Shown here: one piece after another, positions 1,006 through 33,953 of the stretch | Layout of the letters: the number at the start of each line of letters is the position of its first letter | How positions within the stretch are numbered: position 1 is the first letter of the stretch | From: a virus | Lineage: Duplodnaviria > Heunggongvirae > Uroviricota > Caudoviricetes | IMG/VR virus record: IMGVR_UViG_2654587736_000008 | Strand: one strand, 5' to 3' | Length of the DNA: 42,353 nucleotides | The notes under the pieces: generated by a model | Databases searched by the model: none | Told to the model about the DNA's origin: nothing | The model's input: the letters and a program-made list of their open reading frames with translations, nothing else | Made by a program: the position numbers and the translations under genes

Positions 1006-2330
1006 ACGACCTCTTTTAATTGCCTGTCATTTAATTCTTTATGCCATATGCGGAAATTGCGAATATGGCCAAACAGATGTCGTTCTCCAGTATTCGTCTG
1101 CCCTCCAAATCGGATATTTTTATCAGCGGTCACACCATTATATTCACAATAAACTTCATTAACCGCTTTACCATTTGTCACCACATGAAAGTGACCATCA
1201 GCTTTTGCAATACATCCAAATGTGGTTTTCTCTGCAAATACATCTGTCGCTGCGCTATTAACATACAAGCCTGAAGGGTTTGACAGACTCATATATAACT
1301 TACCACTACCTCTGTTGATTGCTGCAATTGCTGATTGCCCGGTATTGGCTGCTGCTATATCCCACACGCGGGGTGCGGCGTTTGGTGCAATATCCCAGTT
1401 TTTATGAATCTCAAGTAAAAAAGTAAATGGTAACTTATAAAGATTATTTCTGGTGGGGATACTAACCAAATCACTGGCTCTTGTCGTTGCGCTGCCTCCT
1501 GAAATAATAAATGATGATACACACGGCCCATTCTCTACTTGTGGGGTGGCAAGATAAATATAGTCACCAGATACTGTTGCCCCACCCTGCTCAGGAGAAT
1601 ACTGTATCTGAGAGCCTATTTTTAACTCACCATCAATTGCCTGAATCGTTGCCTCTGCAAAAATCCAGCCCGTGGTCTTATCCTTCCTGACTCGTGCCGT
1701 AATTCTGCCGGCAGCACCACCTGTCATATTAATTTCAAGCGTTTGCGTATCAATGTACGCATCGCCAAGAAAAGTTGTTGCACTACCATCATACTTATCA
1801 AACCGTATACGTAACCTTACCTGTCGTTCTGTTTTAAAACGGCATGAGGTTGTCACGTACTTGTTATCGCCTGAGACATCAACTGACTTTGTTGCAGCAA
1901 TTGATGCCATATTAATAGCCGAAGTTTGCCCAACCAGAGAATCGTTGCAGACAAACTTTCCATAAGTAAAACCAAAACTATCCGTCCCGGTTTCGGGCAC
2001 ATCCATGTTTGATGACTTCCCCCAGCTGGCTGGACTTTCCGAATTGAGCATGTAGTTCGTTCTTTGTCCCTCAATAAGCAGGCCATCACACTCAAATCGC
2101 GGCTCATTAATTTCCGCCGTTTTCAGTTCGCCAGATTTGTTGATATATGTTGCCGTTGATGCGCGACTGAAATTAACCTGTTTATCACTGGCGACCTGAA
2201 CCACATCGTCACCAATAGCTATTTTTTTATAGCCCGGAGAAAAACCCGCAATCATATCCAGTGAATCGTTAAACGGTATCCACACATCAGGCAGCGGCGG
2301 CACTATATTCGCATAGGGCTCTGCAGTCAC
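1002..2330 (-). CDS. Side tail fibre protein, C-terminal receptor-binding portion (frame separated from N-terminal part by a -1 frameshift)
   Basis: 442-aa ORF; the same frame is open upstream to about 2502 and encodes an Ala/Thr/Lys-rich continuation of the Stf-like shaft. Confidence 0.7.
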   Translation of the reverse strand: MTAEPYANIVPPLPDVWIPFNDSLDMIAGFSPGYKKIAIGDDVVQVASDKQVNFSRASTATYINKSGELKTAEINEPRFECDGLLIEGQRTNYMLNSESPASWGKSSNMDVPETGTDSFGFTYGKFVCNDSLVGQTSAINMASIAATKSVDVSGDNKYVTTSCRFKTERQVRLRIRFDKYDGSATTFLGDAYIDTQTLEINMTGGAAGRITARVRKDKTTGWIFAEATIQAIDGELKIGSQIQYSPEQGGATVSGDYIYLATPQVENGPCVSSFIISGGSATTRASDLVSIPTRNNLYKLPFTFLLEIHKNWDIAPNAAPRVWDIAAANTGQSAIAAINRGSGKLYMSLSNPSGLYVNSAATDVFAEKTTFGCIAKADGHFHVVTNGKAVNEVYCEYNGVTADKNIRFGGQTNTGERHLFGHIRNFRIWHKELNDRQLKEVV

Positions 2331-3061
2331 TTCCGCTGCGGCTTCTGCGCGGTCTGCCGCCTTTTCAGCTCGTGTCGCTGCCGACAGAGCCTCATCCTTT
2401 TTCTGCCCGGCCTTTGTTGCGTCTGCTGCAGCCTCCCGCGCTTTTGTGGTGGCGACTCCGGCATTTTCAGCGGCTGACTCTGCATTACGGCGGGAAGCTC
2501 TTCACTGTCTGCGGAGGCTTCTTCTGACGCACGGGCATTTGTCTCTGAACGTTCTGCCGCTGTTGCTGCGTTTTGTGCGGCTGTTTTTGAAGAAGCTGCC
2601 GCTTTCGCGCTGTTACCTGCATTCGTCTCTGATGTTTTCGCCGCGTTCCTGGACGATGCCGCTGCTGTTTCTGATTTCTTTGCTGCCGCTGCGCTCTGAG
2701 AGGCGGCTTCAGCGTTGCGTGCCACATCCTCCACCATTACCTCAAAACGACGCAATGCCTCCGGCATGACATCCTCTTCCGTCATGGCACCCAGAAAATC
2801 ATTCAGCGTCCCCGGCTTAGAATCCTCATACACGGTGATGGTCCCGGCATGTGAAGGCGGAAAACCTTCAACCAGCAGGATAACGCTGTACTGGCCATAC
2901 TCGACATCCATGCTGTAACGTCCGGCTTCATCCGGATTTTCTGAGGCCACCGTGTTCACCACCACCGTGCTGCTGGTCCGTCTGGCCTTCAGCACAATGG
3001 TGCAGTTCTGTACTGGTTTTCCTGTGCCATCTTTAAGCACGCCAGAAATTTTTACTGTCAT
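2327..3061 (-). CDS. stf: Side tail fibre protein, N-terminal portion (lambda Stf-like); reading frame breaks near 2495-2505
   Basis: N-terminus MTVKISGVLKDGTGKPVQNCTIVLKARR...GRYSMDVEYGQYSV closely resembles lambda Stf; the last ~60 residues of this ORF are basic low-complexity, consistent with out-of-frame translation. Confidence 0.7.
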   Translation of the reverse strand: MTVKISGVLKDGTGKPVQNCTIVLKARRTSSTVVVNTVASENPDEAGRYSMDVEYGQYSVILLVEGFPPSHAGTITVYEDSKPGTLNDFLGAMTEEDVMPEALRRFEVMVEDVARNAEAASQSAAAAKKSETAAASSRNAAKTSETNAGNSAKAAASSKTAAQNAATAAERSETNARASEEASADSEELPAVMQSQPLKMPESPPQKRGRLQQTQQRPGRKRMRLCRQRHELKRRQTAQKPQRK

Positions 3062-3075
3062 ACTTTTCCACCAAT

Positions 3076-3106
3076 AAAAAAAGCCCGCAGCAGTGACGCC
3101 ACGGGC
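3076..3106 (-). terminator. Terminator-like hairpin between lom and stf
   Basis: On minus strand GCCCG...CGGGC followed by TTTTTTT; the loop is long, so only moderate confidence. Confidence 0.35.
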
Positions 3107-3212
3107 TTCAGGACAGTGTAACTTTACGTTTCCTCAAACGCAGTTCACTCCATAAGGCGGATGAACCTGCGTATCATAACAATATTTACAGAAGATAAAT
3201 CGGCGTCTGTTG

Positions 3213-3812
3213 TCAGAAACGGTATCCGATACCAACAATAAATGCATCCGTTCGCCAGTCGCCACTACCGGAACCTTCATAAGCAAGGTCAATGGTCACG
3301 GATTCGGTCGGGTTAAACTGCACGCCAGCCCCCCACGCCAGAGACGTGTTGCTGTGGCGACCGTCATCACTTCCGGTCAGCACATCGTGCGTTTTCCCCT
3401 TGTTGTCAGTTACGCGGAGATAATCCCCGGAGAAAGTCGACACACGGCTGTAAGCCACACCCGCCATCGAATACGCGCTGAACCATTCATTCACGCGTAC
3501 AGACGGCCCCGCCATCACGCTGAACCAGCGGTTACGCACGGAATCTTCATGCCAGCGGGTATCGCTGTAGTGCGTTTTTTGCTCATCCTCAGCATTGGCA
3601 TAACTGAAGGACGTAATCAGCCCCAGCGCGTCCGTAAACTCATAACGGTATTTCACGTTAATCCCGTTCAGATTATCGCTGCCGGGAGCGTTCGTACGGG
3701 CATGAAGATACCCCGCGCTCAGTGTGGACTGATGTTCAGACGCCCATGCAGGCGCACCGGATACGGACAGACAGATGGCTGCGGACAAAATGACTGCACA
3801 AACTTTACGCAT
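3213..3812 (-). CDS. lom: Lom outer-membrane protein (Ail/Lom/PagC family)
   Basis: 199 aa; signal peptide then SEHQSTLSAGYLHA...GINVKYRYEF...GIGYRF, near-identical in pattern to lambda Lom. Confidence 0.9.
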   Translation of the reverse strand: MRKVCAVILSAAICLSVSGAPAWASEHQSTLSAGYLHARTNAPGSDNLNGINVKYRYEFTDALGLITSFSYANAEDEQKTHYSDTRWHEDSVRNRWFSVMAGPSVRVNEWFSAYSMAGVAYSRVSTFSGDYLRVTDNKGKTHDVLTGSDDGRHSNTSLAWGAGVQFNPTESVTIDLAYEGSGSGDWRTDAFIVGIGYRF

Positions 3813-3833
3813 AATTACCTCTCGCTTTTCTGC

Positions 3834-3860
3834 AATAAAAAAGGCGCCATTTCTGGCGCC
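3834..3860 (-). terminator. Intrinsic terminator downstream of J
   Basis: Minus strand: 7-bp stem GGCGCCA-GAAA-TGGCGCC followed by TTTTTTATT. Confidence 0.6.
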
Positions 3861-3879
3861 CGTATATGGGTTATAAAAT

Positions 3880-6800
3880 TCAGCTGATACTGATGCCTGC
3901 GGTGGCTTTCTTCATCACCACAACCAGCAAATCGCTGATACTTGCTGTGGGATACCAGTTATTCACCAGCCATGCTGACACCGAAAACTCCAGCGTCATG
4001 TGGCCGCGACCAGCTGGCATATCAATAACACCACTGTAAATCAGCGTATTATCCAGCGCGGTACGGTTATAAATTTCAGCACCGTTTTTCCGTACTATCA
4101 GGCGGCATGACGAATAAATATCGTTATTCTCCCGCTCATGTTTAGCGCCGCTGAATGCCACCGCCGGAATAACAATCTGCCGGTCAAACGGCTGATCGTC
4201 ATAAACCCTGACGGTGATGGTCCCTGATGGCCACCGTTCCGGTGCACGGGAGTCCCGGGGGAAAGCTTTGCCCACTGTTTTAACGAGATCGCCTTCAATC
4301 TGGTTGGCGGACAATTTTCCCAGAACCCGACAGTTCTCGTTAATCGTGACGTTGTTGAGCGTCCCGGAGTTCGCATTCACGTTACCGCTGATATCGGCAT
4401 TTTTCGCCGTCAGCCGCCCGTCCGGTGTCAGGGAAAATGCCGGAGGATTACCGCCGCTGGTAATGGTCGGAGCCGTCAGGCGTTTCAGGAACACGTCGTT
4501 CATGAATATCTGATCGCCCTGACCAACAAACATCGGCTTTGTGTTGCCATTCGCAGGATTAATCATCGCAATCCGGTCAGCAGCCAGAAGCACCTGACTC
4601 TGCATACCTGCTGGCGTATTCTCAATACCGGCTCCGATACCCGCAATATAAAGGCGTCCGTCCTTCATCTGCTGCAGTTTCACGGCCCACATGCTGTTCA
4701 GGTTATTATTTGTATCAACCTGAACTTTCTGTATCTGCTGGATTGCCGCACTCTGGTCTTCCAGTTTTTTATTGACGGTCTGCGTGATTTCATTGCTGAC
4801 ATTCGTAATGGACGTCCTGATTTCAGCCAGGTCCGGCGCAAGCTGACCGTTATCAATCTGCGTCCACAACTCCTGGGCCAGATGTGTTTTCCCGATTTCT
4901 CCTTTGAAAAAATCCAGGTAACCTTCCGCATCATCGCTCGCCCGACCGACAGCCTCCACGAATGCCGATTTGCCAACGGTGTTCACACTGCGAACGTAAA
5001 AATAATAATCATGGCCCGGTTTGATATTGATACTGGCGGCTATCCAGTACAGCGCCGTACCAAGATAGCGGGCTGTGGTTTCAACCTGCCTGATATCGGT
5101 AATCCGCTTTTCCGAGAACCAGAACTCAAACTGTACCGTCGGGTCATAAACAGCAAGATGCGGCGTGGCGGTTATCTGAAAATAGCCCGGCGTCAGCTCA
5201 ATCCTCGACGGTGCTGCCGGTGCGGCAATCCGGAACGATACCGACGCCGGATCGCCCTGCTGCCCCCGGGCATTTACCGCCCGGACTGTCAGCCTGTAGT
5301 TCCCCAGCGCCAGTTGCGTGAAGCGGTATGTGGTTTCCGTCGTCCGGGCCGTGCTGACCAGTCGCTCACTGCCGTCGTCCGCTGTTACGGTCAGACGGAG
5401 CAGGAAGCTCACGCCCTTCACCACCTTCGGTGTGTCCCATCGCGCCAGCACCTGATATTCCCCGCTGTCTGCAGTGACTTCGGCGGTCAGGTGCTGCACT
5501 GCTGGCGGCGTGACACCATTCACCGTGCCGCTCTGGTCACCGTCAAAGTGCGCCCCGTTATCCACGATGGCTTCTTTCTCCGGTACATGCTGCACGGCGG
5601 TGATGGCATACGTGCCGTCATCGTTCTCACGGATACTCACGCAGCGGAACAGGCGCTGGCGCAGCGTCGGCAGCTTCAGCCCCCACACGCTGTATTCTGC
5701 AACGCCGTCAGGAACACGGCTCACTTTCACCTTCACGCCGTCGGTGACGGACTGGACCTCCACGCTGACCGGATTACCCTGACCGTCAACCAGGCTTATC
5801 AGCGTGGTACCGGAGGATGGCAGCGTGATTTCACGGTCGAGCGTCAGCGTCCGGGTCTGGCTGTTCACCGCCAGCACGCGACCACCGGTGCTGATACCGG
5901 CATAGTCATCATCGCAGATTTCAATGACATCGCCCGGTACATGGCGAAGCCCTTCAGCACCCACGCTGAAATCCACGGTCTGCGTCTCCAGCAGTTCCGT
6001 TTTAATCAGCCACAGCCCGGCGCGGTGTGCCTGCCCCCGGCTGGTACAGCCAAAGGCATCCATCTTCGTGACGTTACGACCGTAACGGGCAATGGCCTGC
6101 GTGTCCTCCACAAGCTCTGTTGCCGTTTCCCAGCCGTTATCCGGGTCAGTCCAGTTCACCTCAACGGCATTATGGCGGTCCTTCAGGGCGCTGAAACTGT
6201 AGCGGAACGGCGCGCCATCATCCGGCATCACCACATTACTGCGGTTATAGGTCCACACCTTATCTGATGGTCGGTCCTGCACGAACGTCAGCGTCTGCCC
6301 GTTCCATACCGGCATACAGCGCATCGCCGAGCAGAAATCACTGAGCACATCCCACGCCTTGCGCTGTGTGGTCAGGTAAGCGTTACAGGTGATGCGCGGC
6401 TCCGTGCCGCCAAAGCCGTCCGGCACCGACTGGTCGCAATTCTGGCCGATGACATACAGCGCCCATTTATCCACATCCGCCGCACCAAGACGTTTCCCCA
6501 TGCCGTAGCGCGGATGGGTCAGCATATCCCACAGACACCAGGCCATGTTGTTGCTGTATGCCGGTTTTAACGTTCCGTCCCAGATACCGCTGTATTGCCG
6601 CGTCTGCGGGTTATAGTTCGACGGCACCTGCAGAATGCGCCCGCGAAGATGATAATTACGGCTCACCTGCTGGCTGCCGAACTGCTCCGAGTCCACCTGC
6701 ACGCCAACCAGTGCCGTGTTCGGGTAGCACTGTTTCACATCGATGATTTCGGTGTATGACGACCAGAGCGTTTTGTTCTGCAGCTGGTCTGTGGTGCTGT

Positions 6801-7359
6801 CCGGCGTCATTCTGCGCATCCGGATATTAAACGGGCGCGGCGGCAGGTTATCCACCACCACCGAGGCCAGATACTGCGAGGTGGTTTTGCCCTTAATGGT
6901 GATGTCTTTTTCCGTCACCCAGCCACCGTTACGCTGGATCTGAACCAGCAGGCGGACTTCCGACGGATTCCTGTCCCCCTTTGAGGTGGTTTCCACCAGT
7001 GCCTGCACACCGAAGGTAAAGCGCAGACGGTCGATGTTTGCCGACGTGATGGTCCGGGTGATCGGCGTGTCATATTTCACTTCCGTACCCAGCACCGTCT
7101 CGGAACCGGAGGATTCAAACCCCTCCGGCGGAGTCTGCTCCTGCTCACCTGCCCGGAACACCACCGTGACGCCGGATATATTGGTATTCCCCTCACTGTC
7201 CAGCACCGGCGTACTGTTCAGCAGCACGCTTTTTAACCCATCCACCGGACCTTCAACCGGCCCTTCGCTGATGGCATCGATCACACTCAGCAACTGCGTG
7301 GACTTCAGGTTGTCCTTCGCTTCGCGCGGGGTATGCCCCTTACTGCTGCCTTTACCCAT
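3880..7359 (-). CDS. J: Host specificity / central tail fibre protein J
   Basis: 1159 aa; N-terminus [34 protein letters not shown] and extensive collinearity with lambda J; C-terminal ~250 aa diverge. Confidence 0.95.
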
Positions 7360-7419
7360 TCGTCATGCTCCATAAACGACAAAACCGCCCGCAGGCGGTT
7401 TCACATAAAACATTTTGCA

Positions 7420-8067
7420 TCAGCGACCAATCACCACAACCTGACCACCGTCACCTTCGTCTGCCGTGCTGATCTCCTGAGAAACCACCCGCGACCCCAC
7501 ACGCATTTCACCGTACAGAACAGGCAGAACATTGCCCTGAGCAACCATGTTATCCAGTGAGGAGAAATAGGTGTTCTGTTTGCCGTTATCTGTACTGGCT
7601 GCCGTGGGCGTCCTGGCTTTCGGTGCCAGCATCTGGGCCACACCACCCAGAATCATACTGGCCCCTGCCGCATACATGCCCGATACAGCCGCAGCACCCA
7701 GCCAGCCCACAGGGTTCCACCATGCCACCGCAATCAGCGCCGCCCCCAGCACCACCTGAAACACACCGCCACTTTTAGCTCCCGCCAGACGCGGCACGAT
7801 GTGAATCACGGCACCATTTTCCAGCGGCTCATTAAGACGGGCAGATAATTCATTTTCGCCTGCATCACGCCCGGCAATGCGCACCTGATACCAGCCCTCA
7901 TTCAGTTTCTGGCGAAACGACGGAAGCTGCGTGGCCAGCGCCCGGATGGCTTCAGCCCCCGTTTTCACACGAAGGTCGATGCGGCGGCCAAATCGTTGTA
8001 AATCCCCGTAAAGGCAGATGCGTGCCATGCCCGGTGACGCCAGAGGGAGTGTGTGCGTCGCTGCCAT
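7420..8067 (-). CDS. I: Tail assembly protein I
   Basis: 215 aa; MAATHTLPLASPGMARICLYGDLQRFGRRIDLRV, lambda gpI-like. Confidence 0.85.
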   Translation of the reverse strand: MAATHTLPLASPGMARICLYGDLQRFGRRIDLRVKTGAEAIRALATQLPSFRQKLNEGWYQVRIAGRDAGENELSARLNEPLENGAVIHIVPRLAGAKSGGVFQVVLGAALIAVAWWNPVGWLGAAAVSGMYAAGASMILGGVAQMLAPKARTPTAASTDNGKQNTYFSSLDNMVAQGNVLPVLYGEMRVGSRVVSQEISTADEGDGGQVVVIGR

Positions 8068-8708
8068 TTGTCGGTATACCTCTCTCGTTTGCTCAGTTGT
8101 TCAGGAATATGGTGCAGCAGCTCGCCGTCACCACAGTAAATGGCGGCATGATTCGGCACCGATGAACCAAAACAGCACAGCAGCACATCGCCCGGCTGCG
8201 CCGCTGACAACGGCACCTGATACAGCCCTGTGGCCTCCAGATTATCCAGATAGAGATTCTGACCGTGACGCCACCAGTCATCCCCGCGATGAAAATCCGG
8301 CATCTCAATCCCCGCCAGATGATAAGCATCCCGGAACAGCGTGTAACAGTCCGTCACCCCGTGCTCAAAGCGCCGCCCGGTAAGATGCGGCACACAGCGG
8401 AATTTATGAATCTCACCCCGGCAGACCAGCCACCACGGCAAATCACTCTGCACCTGCAGCCGCCGGTCGGCCTCACTCAGCCAGGGCAGACCACCGGGGT
8501 GGCTGTGGACCAGCGCCACAATCTCACCCTGCATCTCTGCCCGCAGCCAGTCCTCCGGCGACATCCGGAAATACGCCTCCGGCTCACCGGAGATATTCAC
8601 GCAGGGAAAATATCTTTCCCCCTCCGGCGTTCTCACCACGAAGCCGCACGACTCCGCTGGCGCACATCGCCGGGCGTGCGCCAGAATCGCTGATTCTGTC
8701 TGTGTCAT
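7965..8708 (-). CDS. K: Tail assembly protein K (MPN/JAMM plus NlpC/P60 domains)
   Basis: Start taken at the ATG giving MTQTESAILAHARR; HSHPGG metal-binding motif; the ORF-track upstream extension is rejected. Confidence 0.85.
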   Translation of the reverse strand: MTQTESAILAHARRCAPAESCGFVVRTPEGERYFPCVNISGEPEAYFRMSPEDWLRAEMQGEIVALVHSHPGGLPWLSEADRRLQVQSDLPWWLVCRGEIHKFRCVPHLTGRRFEHGVTDCYTLFRDAYHLAGIEMPDFHRGDDWWRHGQNLYLDNLEATGLYQVPLSAAQPGDVLLCCFGSSVPNHAAIYCGDGELLHHIPEQLSKRERYTDKWQRRTHSLWRHRAWHASAFTGIYNDLAAASTFV

Positions 8709-8712
8709 GGGA

Positions 8713-9411
8713 TTACTGCGAAAGTTTGTTAATGGAAAGGAAGCCGCCAAAGTTGCCGACGTTATTGCGAAACTTACAACCACTCAGGCATTTGCTGCAT
8801 TTATCCTTCGTGATATCGGACGTCGGCTGGTCATATTCATCAGCGACAGCCGGACCGTGATAACCGCACTCATCACCGCGATAGGTCCAGGTGCAGGTAT
8901 TAGCCAGCATGATGCGCCCCGGAAAAACAGCACCGTCCGTTTCCGTCGGCGTGGACAGTACAAAAGAGGCACTGACCGCGCTCAGTTCGCTGCACTGCTC
9001 GATGCGCCAGCGGCTGATCACCTCCTGCTCCGGATCGGCGTCACTGTTTCCGTTGACGAAGTTCACCGCATCCAGAAAACGGGCGTAAACCTTACGCCTG
9101 ACCACCGTTCCGCCGACCAGACTCTGCAGGTCTTCCGCCATCCCGGTGACCATTCCGTGCAGGTTAGAAACCGTCAGTGTCGGACGGGCAGCACTGCCCT
9201 TGCCGTTCAGTTCAAATCCCGTCCCCTGAATAGGGTATGCCTGATACTGCCGCCCCTGCCAGGTAACCGGCTCACCTTTTTCGTTCTGCTCATTACAGAA
9301 AAAATAACGTTCACCACCGACCTCTGTCAGATCGATTTCCCAGAGCACCACCTGGGCTGACTGAGTGAGGCGTGTCGTCTCATGATGTGTTTCCTGTGGA
9401 ATATCCTGCAT
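8713..9411 (-). CDS. L: Minor tail protein L
   Basis: 232 aa, lambda gpL-like; C-terminal Cys cluster CSKCLSGCKFRNNV. Confidence 0.85.
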   Translation of the reverse strand: MQDIPQETHHETTRLTQSAQVVLWEIDLTEVGGERYFFCNEQNEKGEPVTWQGRQYQAYPIQGTGFELNGKGSAARPTLTVSNLHGMVTGMAEDLQSLVGGTVVRRKVYARFLDAVNFVNGNSDADPEQEVISRWRIEQCSELSAVSASFVLSTPTETDGAVFPGRIMLANTCTWTYRGDECGYHGPAVADEYDQPTSDITKDKCSKCLSGCKFRNNVGNFGGFLSINKLSQ

Positions 9412-9420
9412 CAGAGCCTC

Positions 9421-9750
9421 CTATGCCACGACCTGTTCAAAATCTGCCGTTATGGTTACCCACAACGCCCCCACGCTTGCCGACCATTTACGACAAACCA
9501 CCCTGATCGGCTTCCAGTCATAAGGTGGCGTCCACTGAAATGCGCGGACGCCACCGTGCCGTTCCAGAAAGGCTTTTAAAGATGGGTGTTCACATTTACG
9601 AACACGTATCGTCACGCTGTAAGTCGACAACTGGTTATTCAGTCCCGCCGCACGACGCTGTTCATAACCATCGCCCAGCTTCACTGTCACCACTTTCGGC
9701 TCTGATACCACATTCATATCCGGGCGCACTTTCCAGTGAAACGTCTCCAT
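9421..9750 (-). CDS. M: Minor tail protein M
   Basis: 109 aa, lambda gpM-like (METFHWKVRPDM...). Confidence 0.85.
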   Translation of the reverse strand: METFHWKVRPDMNVVSEPKVVTVKLGDGYEQRRAAGLNNQLSTYSVTIRVRKCEHPSLKAFLERHGGVRAFQWTPPYDWKPIRVVCRKWSASVGALWVTITADFEQVVA

Positions 9751-30625: not shown

Positions 30626-31275
30626 GCCGCCATCTCCCTGAGCAGTTTTTCCGCCTGCTGGCGAACCTGCGCCAGAAACGCCTCACCACATGCCTCAAGT
30701 TCATCGCGCCCGATGTAGCTGATTGCCGGTCCCTTCCAGGTCTTGTCAAAAACAGCAATAGCACCAGCGAAGAAAGCTCCTGTCGGCACCTGCTTCTCGT
30801 CTTTCGGGATAAACCAGACAGGCAGTTCAAAACCAATACGCCCGCGAATAAAAGCAATATGATCTGCATCTTCCGGCCACCACACTTCGCTGGTGGCCGC
30901 TTTGATCAGGAAAACATAGCGCCCGCCCTTATCACGCATGACACTGGCATGTTTCATGATGTAACGCATGCCGGTGATGTATTGCCCCTCATGCTGACTG
31001 GCGCGGCTGTATGGGGGATTACCAAAGGCAGCACCTTTAAGCTCCGCAAGACGTTCTGACCAGTCATGCGCCAGCGCGTTATCTTCCGCCGTGTAATACG
31101 CGGCACATTTGGCGTTATCACCGTCAGTAAACAGATCCAGAACAAACGGGCCAAACAGGGTGTTAATTCCCCAGAAAATGTTGTCCGGCGTGCGCCACTG
31201 ATCGCCCACTTCCTTCAGTTCATGGGCTGGTTTGTTCCGCAGTTCCACCAGCGCCTGGCAATATTTATTACTCAT
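30622..31275 (-). CDS. Phage Dam-type DNA N6-adenine methyltransferase (NPPY family)
   Basis: Start MSNKYCQALVELRN at ATG 31275; FGNPPYS motif. Confidence 0.75.
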   Translation of the reverse strand: MSNKYCQALVELRNKPAHELKEVGDQWRTPDNIFWGINTLFGPFVLDLFTDGDNAKCAAYYTAEDNALAHDWSERLAELKGAAFGNPPYSRASQHEGQYITGMRYIMKHASVMRDKGGRYVFLIKAATSEVWWPEDADHIAFIRGRIGFELPVWFIPKDEKQVPTGAFFAGAIAVFDKTWKGPAISYIGRDELEACGEAFLAQVRQQAEKLLREMAA

Positions 31276-31763
31276 TAAGCCCCCACGTAATTCCCTGACA
31301 GATACCACTCTTCACCCGATGCAGCGCGCTTGCTGCTTTTCCGTAAGCACCGCTCACGACGCGCCAGAAAATTGTTTCGTTCTGGCTGGGAGTGGCTTTC
31401 ACGGAATGCCGCCATCCACACGGTTGCAGCACGACGGTATAAGCCCCTGGACTCCAGTTCTTCAGCCTGGCGGGTCAGGCACAAAATCACCCGTGGATCG
31501 TTAGTGCCGACATAGAAATTGCGCACAGGTCTGGTTTCTCGAACTGGTTGTGGTTCCGGTTCCTGCGCTCTCTCAGTCAGGCGCGGGAAATGTCTGCGTG
31601 TATCTCCTTCACAACGGTGAGCCACACGCCCACTCTGACGTAACTTGCTTGCTGACTGCAGAACGCGCTGCCGTGAGTAACCTGCAAAAGCATCCGCAAT
31701 GTCTCCGGAAGTACACCCCGGATGGGCTTCAATGAATTTCTGAACTTCATTCAAAAGACTCAT
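31275..31763 (-). CDS. PerC/Pch-like transcriptional regulator domain protein
   Basis: C-terminal AEELESRGLYRRAATVWMAAFRE...RRERCLRK resembles the PerC family signature; N-terminal ~90 aa unassigned. Confidence 0.5.
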   Translation of the reverse strand: MSLLNEVQKFIEAHPGCTSGDIADAFAGYSRQRVLQSASKLRQSGRVAHRCEGDTRRHFPRLTERAQEPEPQPVRETRPVRNFYVGTNDPRVILCLTRQAEELESRGLYRRAATVWMAAFRESHSQPERNNFLARRERCLRKSSKRAASGEEWYLSGNYVGA

Positions 31764-31765
31764 GA

Positions 31766-32584
31766 TCACCCCCTGAATCCTGCCGGGATCTGGCTGTAGT
31801 CCACGTTGTCGTAACTGGCTTTGAAGTACGGGTCCTCGCGTCTGGCTGCAGATACCGCAGGAACTTCCCAGGATTCTTCGAAATGACGATCCGGACCAAA
31901 GAACGTAACAGCCTGTTTCACAAATTGTGTGCCGCTGTTACCCATCGCAGATACCCAGCCCGCGTAGCGTTTCACACCTTCCAGCATGGTTTCGGGGTTT
32001 ACCCCCTCATTCAAACGGGCTTTCCAGGCTTTGAAGGCTGCAGATTTTGAATTGCCACCAGCACGTTTGGGATATACCAGCCATGCCTGCTCAAACTCCG
32101 GAGAGTATTCCGGTCGGTTTGAACGAACTCGCACGGACTCATCAACTGATGCACCAACAGCTATTGGTTCATTGACTGGTTCTTTGACTGGTTCAAAAGA
32201 GTGACTGGTTCTGGGTGAATCTCCTGCACTACCCCCTGGTGCAACTCCTGCACTACCTGGTGAATTTGCTGCACCAGATAGTGAATTATTTGCACTACCC
32301 CCTAGTGAATCTCCTGCACCATCCAGATGAAGGAGATAGATATTACTTGAGTTACCTTTTTCACCTTTCCGGGTGACTTTTTTTACCAGCCCGGACTCAC
32401 AAAGGGCCGCAATATGATTCATCACAGAACGTTTGCTAATCTCGCACTGGTCAGCAATATGCTGGTAGCTGGGCCAGCACTCCCCCTGATCGCTGGCATT
32501 ATCAGCCAGCTTGATCAGAACCAGTTTTCGCAATGGATTACCCACTCGAATTTTCATCGCTTTAACCATCAGCTCCATACTCAT
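31766..32584 (-). CDS. Replication initiator (O-like, N-terminal wHTH) containing the origin iterons
   Basis: 272 aa; N-terminal wHTH; Gly/Ser/Ala-rich central linker encoded by the DNA repeats; conserved C-terminal domain. Confidence 0.65.
   Translation of the reverse strand: MSMELMVKAMKIRVGNPLRKLVLIKLADNASDQGECWPSYQHIADQCEISKRSVMNHIAALCESGLVKKVTRKGEKGNSSNIYLLHLDGAGDSLGGSANNSLSGAANSPGSAGVAPGGSAGDSPRTSHSFEPVKEPVNEPIAVGASVDESVRVRSNRPEYSPEFEQAWLVYPKRAGGNSKSAAFKAWKARLNEGVNPETMLEGVKRYAGWVSAMGNSGTQFVKQAVTFFGPDRHFEESWEVPAVSAARREDPYFKASYDNVDYSQIPAGFRG
32165..32325. repeat. Iteron-like direct repeats (candidate ori) inside the initiator gene
   Basis: At least three copies of TGACTGGTTC followed by about five ~21-bp repeats with core TCCTGCAC(T/C)A. 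Confidence 0.6.
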
Positions 32585-32805
32585 GCAGCACCTCCGAGAT
32601 GCTTCATGTTTTTTCCGGAGCGAAAGGCTATAAGCGGCATACTGACGCGGTAACTACGGCCCAGCGGTTCACAAATCACCTTCTGACATTCACGGTCAAC
32701 CAGGCTAACACGTAGAACATGCCCTGCAGGTGTGGTGTACCACTGACCCGGACGAGGACAACGGAAAGTCTGATTGGTAAACCGTTTGAAAATATTCCGG
32801 ATCAT
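32581..32805 (-). CDS. Hypothetical protein (74 aa)
   Basis: ATGA-coupled to both neighbours. Confidence 0.45.
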   Translation of the reverse strand: MIRNIFKRFTNQTFRCPRPGQWYTTPAGHVLRVSLVDRECQKVICEPLGRSYRVSMPLIAFRSGKNMKHLGGAA

Positions 32806-33953
32806 TTGCGCCCCCTTACCTCTGAAGGGTTCAGCGACAAATTTATGAGGCAGGCCAGTGCCGAAGCATCATTAATATAGTCATACAAGCTAACAGCCAG
32901 CGGAGATTCGGCTTTTGCCAACATAGGATAAAGCTGCTGCAGCCAGACCTGATGAATTGATGAAATGTAGGAATAGAGAACGCTGGCGTTATGTGCAACG
33001 TCGCTCAGTACAGAGGGATTTGAAAGCTGTTTCTCCATCTGGTTAAAGGCATTGATGTATGCCTCTTTGAACTGGGCAGCACGTTTACCCGTGAAACCCA
33101 TAGCAAGAAACGCAAAGCCGTCGCGGGTTATTTGATAGCAAGGTAGTTTGCGGCCTGTGCAATCGGTGTAATCACTCGCCGAAAAATTGCGGGAAGTGAA
33201 TGATGCAGAGCATTCAAGCGTGCGGATCTTTTTCAGTACATCGTCATGACGTTTGGAGAAGAAGTTGGCAACAGCCAGGGATGAAGTAACAGCCTGACCA
33301 TCAACGATGGCAATTTCAGGTTGAGTGAGGGTTGGGATCGTAGCCATGATGGCAGCCTCTTTGGTGATTTTTAATAACTCACCACCAAGGCTTTCCACGA
33401 CCTTATTGGTGGTGAGACGTACAGGGGTGGAAATACCGGTCACCAAAGAACCCGGCCCAACCGAAGTTGGCCCTGCACGCCCCACCATAATTTGGGCGTA
33501 ATGCTGCTCATTACACAAAAAAACCGCAAGAGCGCGGTTGTGCGCTTTGGTGAATTCCGAGTTTCCACGCCCGGCACCCGCTTTATAAGGTGCCTGAACA
33601 GTGTAACGTCCCGGAATGGCAGAATCAATGTGCTGGTGGTCCTTCACACTCAACAAAATCACGCCTGAATTTCCACAAAGGACTAAAGCACTCATGCGGG
33701 TAGTCTTTGCGAAGATAGATAACGCGCTGTGTTTCTGGCTCCCAACGAATAACATGGACATAAAGCCCTCTTCCGTCACGAAACCAGCGGTTAAGTTCCT
33801 GCACAACTCGCCCCCCACAGTCAGGTAAAGTTCTCTGTGGTTACTTACAGCCAAGTGATTTGGTAATCTGCATTCATGCCGTAACAACAGGTGTTCAGCG
33901 ACACTGACCACCAGCTGTTGCGACAAACGGTTATTTGCCGTTAAACTGTTCAT
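32802..33953 (-). CDS. Rha-family phage regulatory protein with a ~200-aa N-terminal extension (alternative start ATG 33348)
   Basis: pRha domain (IAIVDGQAVTSSLAVANFFSKRHDDVLKKIRTL...YQITRDGFAFLAMGFTGKRAAQFKEAYINAFNQMEKQL) in the C-terminal half; the ORF is open to ATG 33953, which overlaps the upstream stop (ATGA). Confidence 0.6.
   Translation of the reverse strand: MNSLTANNRLSQQLVVSVAEHLLLRHECRLPNHLAVSNHRELYLTVGGELCRNLTAGFVTEEGFMSMLFVGSQKHSALSIFAKTTRMSALVLCGNSGVILLSVKDHQHIDSAIPGRYTVQAPYKAGAGRGNSEFTKAHNRALAVFLCNEQHYAQIMVGRAGPTSVGPGSLVTGISTPVRLTTNKVVESLGGELLKITKEAAIMATIPTLTQPEIAIVDGQAVTSSLAVANFFSKRHDDVLKKIRTLECSASFTSRNFSASDYTDCTGRKLPCYQITRDGFAFLAMGFTGKRAAQFKEAYINAFNQMEKQLSNPSVLSDVAHNASVLYSYISSIHQVWLQQLYPMLAKAESPLAVSLYDYINDASALACLINLSLNPSEVRGRK

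Follow-up and report, generated by a model that had tools for sequence, protein, structure and literature searches.

A candidate replication origin inside the HTH_36 initiator gene of an Escherichia coli lambdoid prophage

Phage lambda carries its origin of replication in the middle of gene O, as an array of iterons and a second tract (PMC7466680); two iterons and the adjacent tract are reported to be enough for unwinding (PMC7466680, citing Dodson 1986), and the number of iterons, four in lambda versus six in Shiga toxin (Stx) phages, changes the length of O (PMC7466680). Here we describe a similar arrangement in a 42,353-bp stretch of viral DNA (IMG/VR record IMGVR_UViG_2654587736_000008; the whole stretch is hereafter called the window), which is a lambdoid prophage of Escherichia coli. 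Its replication initiator gene, 100% identical to the corresponding sequence in NZ_CP051744.1, encodes a protein of the Pfam HTH_36 family and contains, in the part coding for an interdomain linker, five dyad-symmetric iterons followed by a 37-bp core. Based on the sequence of this segment and of its homologues, positions 32165-32319 probably form an initiator-bound, cis-acting replication origin inside the linker-coding part of the initiator's own gene. An origin inside an initiator gene is of a known kind, ordinary for phage biology, and the candidate origin of the window would be a further example.

The likeness to lambda O, including its 933W and P27 variants, takes in the mid-gene position, the dyad iteron array, the second cis tract on its C-terminal side, the flexible linker that the array encodes between a DNA-binding N-domain and a partner-binding C-domain (presumed in the window), the probable transcription across the site (from pR in lambda), and an iteron number that varies between relatives and alters the length of the protein. 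The window differs from lambda in that its initiator belongs to HTH_36, in that a 37-bp core of 44% G+C (GC) stands in place of an AT-rich stretch, and in having no P or other loader gene. A first-pass annotation of the window had likened the locus to lambda ori within O; the order of winged helix-turn-helix (wHTH) domain, repeat array, second cis element and C-terminal domain bears out that comparison, but the protein is not of the lambda O family and no AT-rich tract is present. With these exceptions, a lambda-like interpretation of the repeats appears well supported.

Other described systems share parts of this organization. Gene 18 of phages P22 and L encodes distantly related lambdoid ori-binding proteins, with phage-specific, imprecise intragenic repeats and sequence-predicted origins (Casjens and co-workers, PMC8022706); unlike the window, however, these phages have a DnaB-type helicase (gene 12) next door, and no family-wide nucleotide-conserved core has been described for them (PMC8022706). 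The pHW126-family plasmids (pIGRK, pIGMS31) have an origin made of a family-conserved region (CR) and four 20-bp element-specific iterons; CR and iterons are both needed, and the winged-helix Rep binds both (PMC6854812). The plasmid origin lies outside the rep gene, in contrast to that of the window, and rolling-circle replication is thought to be used. The likeness is one of analogy only. A plasmid search for a characterised replicon with the window-type module returned only circular phage-like or misassigned records. In the classification of Stx-phage replication regions, the module appears to correspond to Eru6: its initiator gene shares 98.4% DNA identity with that of the reference phage Stx2a_WGPS2 (AP012537), and a Rha/Ash gene lies upstream, a comparison limited to these genes. 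In Eru6, too, a Rha/Ash-domain gene precedes an HTH_36 gene on the downstream side of cI/cro; its classification is descriptive, and no origin, iterons or mechanism is reported (PMC8951638). We found no prior description of the iterons, the core or HTH_36 origins in the literature searched, whose coverage is incomplete.

Iterons in the linker-coding region

The first-pass annotation had placed two repeat families within the initiator coding sequence and counted about five units of ~21 bp in one of them. Both families are present between 32165 and 32319, and repeat finders agree on them; the unit count and spacing also stand (Table 1). Iteron units 1, 2 and 5 contain the exact core TCCTGCAC, whereas units 3 and 4 have degenerate versions of it. 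What had been missed is that each unit is an imperfect inverted repeat, reading GTGCA-N5-TKCAC on the gene strand, with unit 2 (GTGCAGGAGTTGCAC) a perfect 5-N5-5 palindrome. The pattern GTGMANNNNNTKCAC (GTGMA-N5-TKCAC) matches five times in the window, always within the array; 100 dinucleotide-preserving shuffles gave an expectation of 0.30 matches, and none reached five. The single-strand hairpin potential of the repeat region (z = -2.0; 8 of 200 shuffles fold as well) is explained by the dyad units. A lone iteron-like site, TGTGAAGGAGATACAC, occurs at 31598-31613 on the minus strand, inside the neighbouring gene yfdN; it has three mismatches to the consensus and is within chance.

The iterons, together with the copies of GAACCAGTCA described below, encode amino acids (aa) 89-140 (GAGDSLGGSANNSLSGAANSPGSAGVAPGGSAGDSPRTSHSFEPVKEPVNEP), which comprise a Gly/Ser/Ala-rich linker, as originally proposed, and then PRTSHSFEPVKEPVNEP. 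The array thus sits, within the initiator's own coding sequence, between the wHTH domain (aa 1-89) and the C-terminal helices.

Homologues were picked by two N-terminal peptide patterns only, with one genome per species, giving 80 loci from Pseudomonas, Xenorhabdus, Photorhabdus, Shewanella, Marinomonas, Haemophilus, Rahnella, Proteus and others. Sequenced phages were added (ST64B, Aeromonas AsXd-1, Vibrio D67, D79 and phiV039C, Salmonella S107, Aggregatibacter S1249, and Stx2a_F403), and the comparison set comprised 84 non-identical Gammaproteobacteria genes. A scan of viral contigs with an N-terminal alignment returned only near-identical E. coli copies; the scan of genome contigs supplied the diversity. 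All 84 genes carry two to seven (mostly four or five) 15-bp repeats at the linker position, with a spacing of 21-24 bp in 260 of 275 intervals, and 63 of the 84 family consensus units have four or five of their five arm positions complementary. In 33 genes one unit is shifted into another reading frame, with spacings of 23+22 bp, and the peptide VVQEIHQG replaces GSAGDSP; the DNA and its phasing are kept in these alternate-frame units, so that it is the DNA and not the peptide that is preserved. Repetition of a peptide cannot account for this pattern, whereas a DNA site phased by turns of the helix can. The linker (aa 91-157) is predicted to be disordered (AlphaFold2 [AF2] predicted local distance difference test [pLDDT] < 50), so that the protein would tolerate what the DNA dictates.

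The putative recognition helix of the initiator spans approximately aa 49-62 (ISKRSVMNHIAAL), and its motif changes together with the iteron: KRSVMNHI is found with GTGCA-N5-TKCAC, RSTVKxHIR with GGGCAG-GAG-CTGCCC, DRSTVRKHIK with GTAGGC-N5-GCCTAC, KRSVMRHI with GTGAC-N5-GTCAC, and SKSAVxxHI with GCACA-CCCC-TGTGC. These comparisons show that the iterons are constrained as DNA and that their sequence tracks the predicted DNA-reading helix of the initiator, as would be expected of iterons.

Iteron copy number is polymorphic among E. coli and Shigella genes that are >87% identical (P0001, P0003, P0021, P0028, P0042; L005 2501-3385): one unit (P0042, a short European Nucleotide Archive contig), two (P0028, 64 contigs), five (the window), seven, eight (cdtI, P0003) or nine (P0001) are found per gene. 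In Pseudomonas bharatica CSV86 (L135 3001-3402) the initiator gene is frame-shifted within the array and ends ...VVQELHPEPVTLLNQ*, the peptide that the window sequence itself would yield in its alternative frame; the gene represents a pseudogene, an error of assembly or a truncated product with DNA binding as its only activity.

Table 1. Positions of the initiator gene, its domains, the candidate origin elements and the overlapping genes in the window.
Feature	Position	Strand	Description
Replication initiator gene	31766..32584	minus	272 aa; HTH_36 winged helix, disordered linker, helical C-terminal domain
wHTH DNA-binding domain, coding region	32318..32584	minus	aa 1-89; AF2 pLDDT 79-92
Iteron array	32215..32319	minus	five 15-bp dyad-symmetric units; encodes aa 89-124
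Iteron units	32215-32229, 32239-32253, 32260-32274, 32281-32295, 32305-32319		start-to-start spacing 24/21/21/24 bp
37-bp core CCAGAACCAGTCACTCTTTTGAACCAGTCAAAGAACC	32178..32214	minus	abuts last iteron; holds two GAACCAGTCA copies
GAACCAGTCA copies	32173-32182, 32185-32194, 32202-32211	gene strand	
Lineage-specific extra 12-bp repeat of the core's 3' part	32165..32177	minus	third GAACCAGTCA copy, then ATGAACCA; encodes second EPV
C-terminal domain, coding region	31769..32113	minus	aa ~158-272; motif FEQAWxxYPKRAGGNSK...TFFGPDRHF
74-aa open reading frame	32581-32805	minus	PHROG 1153; overlaps initiator start codon
yfdN	31275-31769	minus	PerC family; overlaps initiator stop codon

A nucleotide-conserved core and its module

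The second repeat family is the 10-mer GAACCAGTCA on the gene strand (TGACTGGTTC on the plus strand), for which at least three copies had been claimed; three exact copies occur, all at 32173-32211, with none elsewhere in the window. Of these, the one closest to the iterons is translated as AGA ACC AGT CAC (RTSH), and the other two as GAA CCA GTC A (EPV). Tandem Repeats Finder reports a period of 12 and 2.6 copies at 32165-32195, and one variant gene (P0018) has a further GAACCAGTCA copy (EPVKEPVKEPVNEP). Both families had been taken for iterons, a description that suits the dyad units but not these 10-mers: judged by the family-wide comparison, the TGACTGGTTC repeats are the window phage's version of a shared core plus one 12-bp copy and not a private second iteron family; the core is conserved at the nucleotide level throughout the family. 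An inverted 10-mer, CAGAACCAGT at 32516-32525, also matches the GAACCAGTCA family; it was rejected as a chance occurrence, since its KLVLI codons vary synonymously in homologues, and by our own estimate such pairs arise at ~0.5 per 1 kb.

The family core sequence, CCAGAACCAGTCACTCTTTTGAACCAGTCAAnGAACC, directly follows the last iteron, in a constant frame, in 87 of 89 genes. Across the 84-gene set it holds 1.6-2.0 bits of information per position at most of offsets -2 to +34 and ~0.2 bits beyond +34, the conservation stopping abruptly 35 bp after the AGA codon of the core. The codons themselves are fixed or nearly so: CCC in 68/68 genes, AGA in 79/79, AGT in 80/80, CAC in 74/74 and TCT in 77/77, then GAA in 83/83, CCA in 65/69, GTC in 76/79 and GAA in 81/81. 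Conserved residues of the N-terminal domain are near maximal synonymous entropy (Ser39, 2.55 of 2.58 bits; Arg72, 2.53 of 2.58 bits). The core codons are constant across genes of 36-62% GC, and the core is ~45% GC in GC-rich and AT-rich hosts alike. These data show nucleotide-level purifying selection on the core across the family. The core was found in 139 phage records at 140 places, once each in nearly all and always inside a gene annotated as replication or helix-turn-helix. It is an unexpected feature in being conserved as nucleotides and yet not AT-rich.

The N-domain, the iterons and the core form one mobile module, found joined to different C-terminal domains, with tblastn matches breaking at ~aa 140, and the C-terminal domain recombines independently of this N-terminal module. 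One gene (P0059) is a natural hybrid that joins an Stx2a_F403-type N-domain and GGGCAG-type iterons to a window-type C-terminal domain; its junction lies inside the core, which implies that the core also acts as a point of module exchange. Initiators with an unrelated or very divergent N-domain and the same C-terminal domain (Stx2_14040, Vibrio D79) have repeats of their own and no core. The Vibrio phages D67 (L004) and D79 (L011), otherwise collinear 60-kb phages with a common C-terminal domain and downstream genes, present a clean natural module swap: D67 has three GTGAY-N5-GTCAC units plus the core, and D79 has five GTGAC-N5-GTCAC units, one of them frame-shifted, and then a 37% GC stretch without the core.

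The core CCAGAACCAGTCACTCTTTTGAACCAGTCAAnGAACC may, as a tentative proposal that we hold at somewhat less than even confidence, be an undescribed portable origin core of HTH_36-initiator phages across Gammaproteobacteria, serving as a sequence-specific opening or helicase hand-over site for a conserved part of the initiator or for a host factor, whether the loader or helicase of the phage is lambda-P-like, DnaC-like, DnaB-like or a primase-helicase, or is missing altogether. It is unlikely that the core is instead no part of the origin, being a recombination "linker" at the module boundary or an mRNA-level signal for pausing or recoding between the domains. The core does lie exactly where N-terminal modules join unrelated C-terminal domains, the P0059 crossover falls within it, its frame is the same in every gene that has it, and it contains the rare codon AGA; on the other hand, recombination alone cannot fix ~35 positions in Pseudomonas, Vibrio, Haemophilus, Xenorhabdus and E. 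coli phages whose flanking codons have fully diverged, and no canonical slippery heptamer is seen when the core is read directly. Furthermore, the core always accompanies the N-terminal DNA-binding module, is absent from initiators that pair another N-domain with the same C-terminal domain, and keeps a fixed distance from the last iteron. The origin, recombination-linker and mRNA-signal roles are not mutually exclusive.

The initiator, its neighbours and proposed helicase recruitment

The 272-aa protein matches Pfam HTH_36 (PF13730) at aa 17-67 (E 1.8e-11; 44.1 bits against a gathering cut-off of 25) and PHROG 270, "replication initiation protein" (E 6.9e-88). Its gene is ~98-99% identical in DNA to SfV orf39, cdtI orf46 and the genes of mEp460 and Stx2c/Stx2a phages, counterparts that carry the annotation "replication protein", and it is found, whole or in part, in 2,718 of 5,426 complete E. 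coli genomes. Initiators of this type occur in SfV, ST64B, cdtI and Stx2a/Stx2c-converting phages, and also in prophages of Pseudomonas, Vibrio, Xenorhabdus, Shewanella and Haemophilus. Phage_rep_O (PF04492, the lambda O family) is not among the Pfam matches at E <= 0.01; where PHROG uses a name like "replication initiation O-like", this is an annotation given to relatives of the N-terminal domain. DnaD_N scores 24.3 bits, under its cut-off of 27, which does not place the protein among DnaD-like primosomal proteins, and a match of aa 145-249 to PHROG 1701, "DnaD-like helicase loader" (7e-33), is an annotation label only. The AF2 model of the wHTH domain contains helices at 3-11, 17-29, 40-47 and 51-64 and strands at 67-73 and 79-85; with this model Foldseek returned generic winged-helix matches only, including the DnaD N-domain 2v79 (E ~0.02). 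C-terminal helices are modelled at aa 162-225, with modest confidence from a shallow alignment of 24 sequences. The C-terminal domain has no match in Pfam, NCBIfam, a PDB sequence search or a PDB profile search, and Foldseek, with wHTH matches only, gave it no fold; it is presumed to be a protein-interaction module for recruiting a helicase or loader.

The genes downstream of the initiator are yfdN, dam, a LexA-like gene and rusA, with no P-type loader adjacent, and PGAP annotation of a 100% identical E. coli segment covering the whole 42-kb window lists no helicase, helicase loader or primase. The prophage thus has no loader of its own, which confirms the first-pass claim that no P-like or DnaC-like loader is encoded nearby. 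Elsewhere in the family, the neighbours of the different C-terminal types are a lambda-P-like gene, a DnaC-like gene (IstB_IS21), DnaC-like plus DnaB-like genes, a DnaB-like gene alone, a primase-helicase, or, in Pseudomonas, a 268-aa protein without a Pfam match. Among 12 loci with the C-terminal subtype of the window, seven continue with a DnaC-like gene, six of these also with a DnaB-like gene; three (the window, ST64B and a Leclercia prophage) continue with yfdN and dam-type genes; and two, both Vibrio phages, continue with a 108-aa gene. The phage cdtI lacks even yfdN. The absence of a loader or helicase from the prophage, taken with the DnaC-like and DnaB-like genes of relatives that share its C-terminal domain, suggests from gene neighbourhood that this domain engages a DnaC/DnaB-type complex, here that of the host.

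At 21 loci with a third C-terminal type (L094-L132, from Pseudomonas and relatives; e.g., L094 3893-4699), the initiator gene is followed by a start-overlapping gene for a ~265-aa protein without a Pfam match. Occupying the slot of the lambda-P-like and DnaC-like loaders, this protein is a candidate for an undescribed helicase loader.

On the matching E. coli segment, PGAP annotates an integrase and then tail, head, lysis, Q, nin-like and immunity-region genes. The rightward operon runs in the order cro-like, CII/YmfL-like, Rha/Ash regulator, 74-aa open reading frame, initiator, yfdN (PerC family), dam, LexA-like and rusA, and the initiator-gene region is probably transcribed from the cro side. 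A 53%-identical homologue of the 74-aa open reading frame stands at the same place in Stx2_14040, which has a different N-domain and the same C-terminal domain; the frame is absent upstream of the Aeromonas AsXd-1 initiator gene. The N-terminal part of the yfdN product weakly matches a MarR-type regulator PHROG, and yfdN fills the loader-gene slot in three loaderless Enterobacteriaceae loci (the window, ST64B and Leclercia L159). At 1192-9507 of the window, numerous genes for the tail and its fibres (gpJ, tail assembly, Lom, fibre) are flagged by PGAP as frameshifted or partial in the identical E. coli SCU-484 record; either a defective prophage or indel errors in the assembly may be the cause. 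A promoter or terminator role for the repeat region was considered and dropped: no sigma-70-like promoter was found in 31600-32900, and the one antisense terminator-like hairpin there, against ~1.3 expected, is at the level of chance.

Proposed mechanism, competing explanations and significance

We propose that dimers of the N-terminal winged helix would bind the five iterons, which lie about two helical turns apart, to form an O-some-like nucleoprotein complex. The core, in place of the AT-rich tract of lambda, would be the site of duplex opening and helicase delivery; alternatively, it may be a conserved docking site, for a conserved part of the initiator or for a host factor, that accompanies the N-terminal module. 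Recruitment of the helicase would then fall to the C-terminal domain, most likely by direct use of the host DnaC-DnaB complex, and rightward transcription from the cro side would cross the origin, as in lambda.

Several observations weigh against parts of this scheme. For the HTH_36 family, origin activity, binding and unwinding are all inferred from sequence, and the Stx-phage literature records nothing known on the replication proteins of Eru-type modules (PMC8951638). There is no AT-rich tract beside the iterons, the adjacent 50 bp being 44% GC, compared with 50% for the whole gene, and the lowest value in any 60-bp interval being 41.7% GC; without an AT-rich composition at the core, strand opening at this exact spot is not indicated by composition. 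No match to the DnaA-box or integration host factor (IHF) consensus was seen in the core, which was checked by eye only, and no promoter-like site was found near the array. The recruitment step is drawn from gene-neighbourhood association, for a C-terminal domain whose fold is unrecognised and whose AF2 confidence is modest. Moreover, Vibrio D67 and D79 share the C-terminal subtype of the window and have no adjacent DnaC-like gene either; many Vibrionaceae lack dnaC (PMC11087808), and host DnaC therefore cannot be the universal partner.

The array could also be a true initiator-binding cluster that serves regulation (autorepression, titration or handcuffing, or incompatibility), with replication starting elsewhere, an explanation that we consider quite unlikely. 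Plasmid iterons are also determinants of copy control and incompatibility (pIGRK, PMC6854812), and a regulatory cluster would be at ease with the want of a strongly AT-rich tract beside the array and with the one weak extra iteron-like site in yfdN. However, the window showed no further repeat cluster or candidate origin, and the iteron pattern is confined to the array; array and core are present once in nearly all phage records; the one analogue that has been studied well uses its intragenic iterons as the origin (PMC7466680); and there is no nearby promoter-like site to regulate. The remaining possibility, that the repeats amount to no more than a slippage-prone, low-complexity linker sequence coding for Gly/Ser/Ala-rich peptide repeats and lacking any function as DNA, would suit the disordered linker, the copy-number variation among near-identical genes (common in tandem coding repeats) and the single reading frame shared by all the window iterons, but it is very improbable and already contradicted by the comparative data, in which 33 of 84 homologues keep the DNA unit and its 21-24 bp phasing with a different peptide, the units show dyad symmetry as well as covariation with the recognition helix, the adjoining core has invariant synonymous positions, and one GAACCAGTCA copy of the window is in a different frame from the other two.

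The preferred reading, an origin within the initiator gene, contributes three elements: a base-precise candidate origin for the very widespread HTH_36 initiator family, a non-AT-rich 37-bp core, and a loaderless configuration. It provides testable sites: dyad iterons of 15 bp, for which a helix-to-site specificity code is predicted, and an invariant 37-bp core. The natural loaderless variant offers a setting for asking how an initiator recruits the host helicase; if the proposal for the core is true, one phage protein and the core would suffice, in this lineage, to capture host DnaC-DnaB. Stx production depends on phage replication, so that the core could be used as a marker or target. The variable iterons, for their part, lead to predictions of replication specificity and of incompatibility groups for prophages that reside together in one host.

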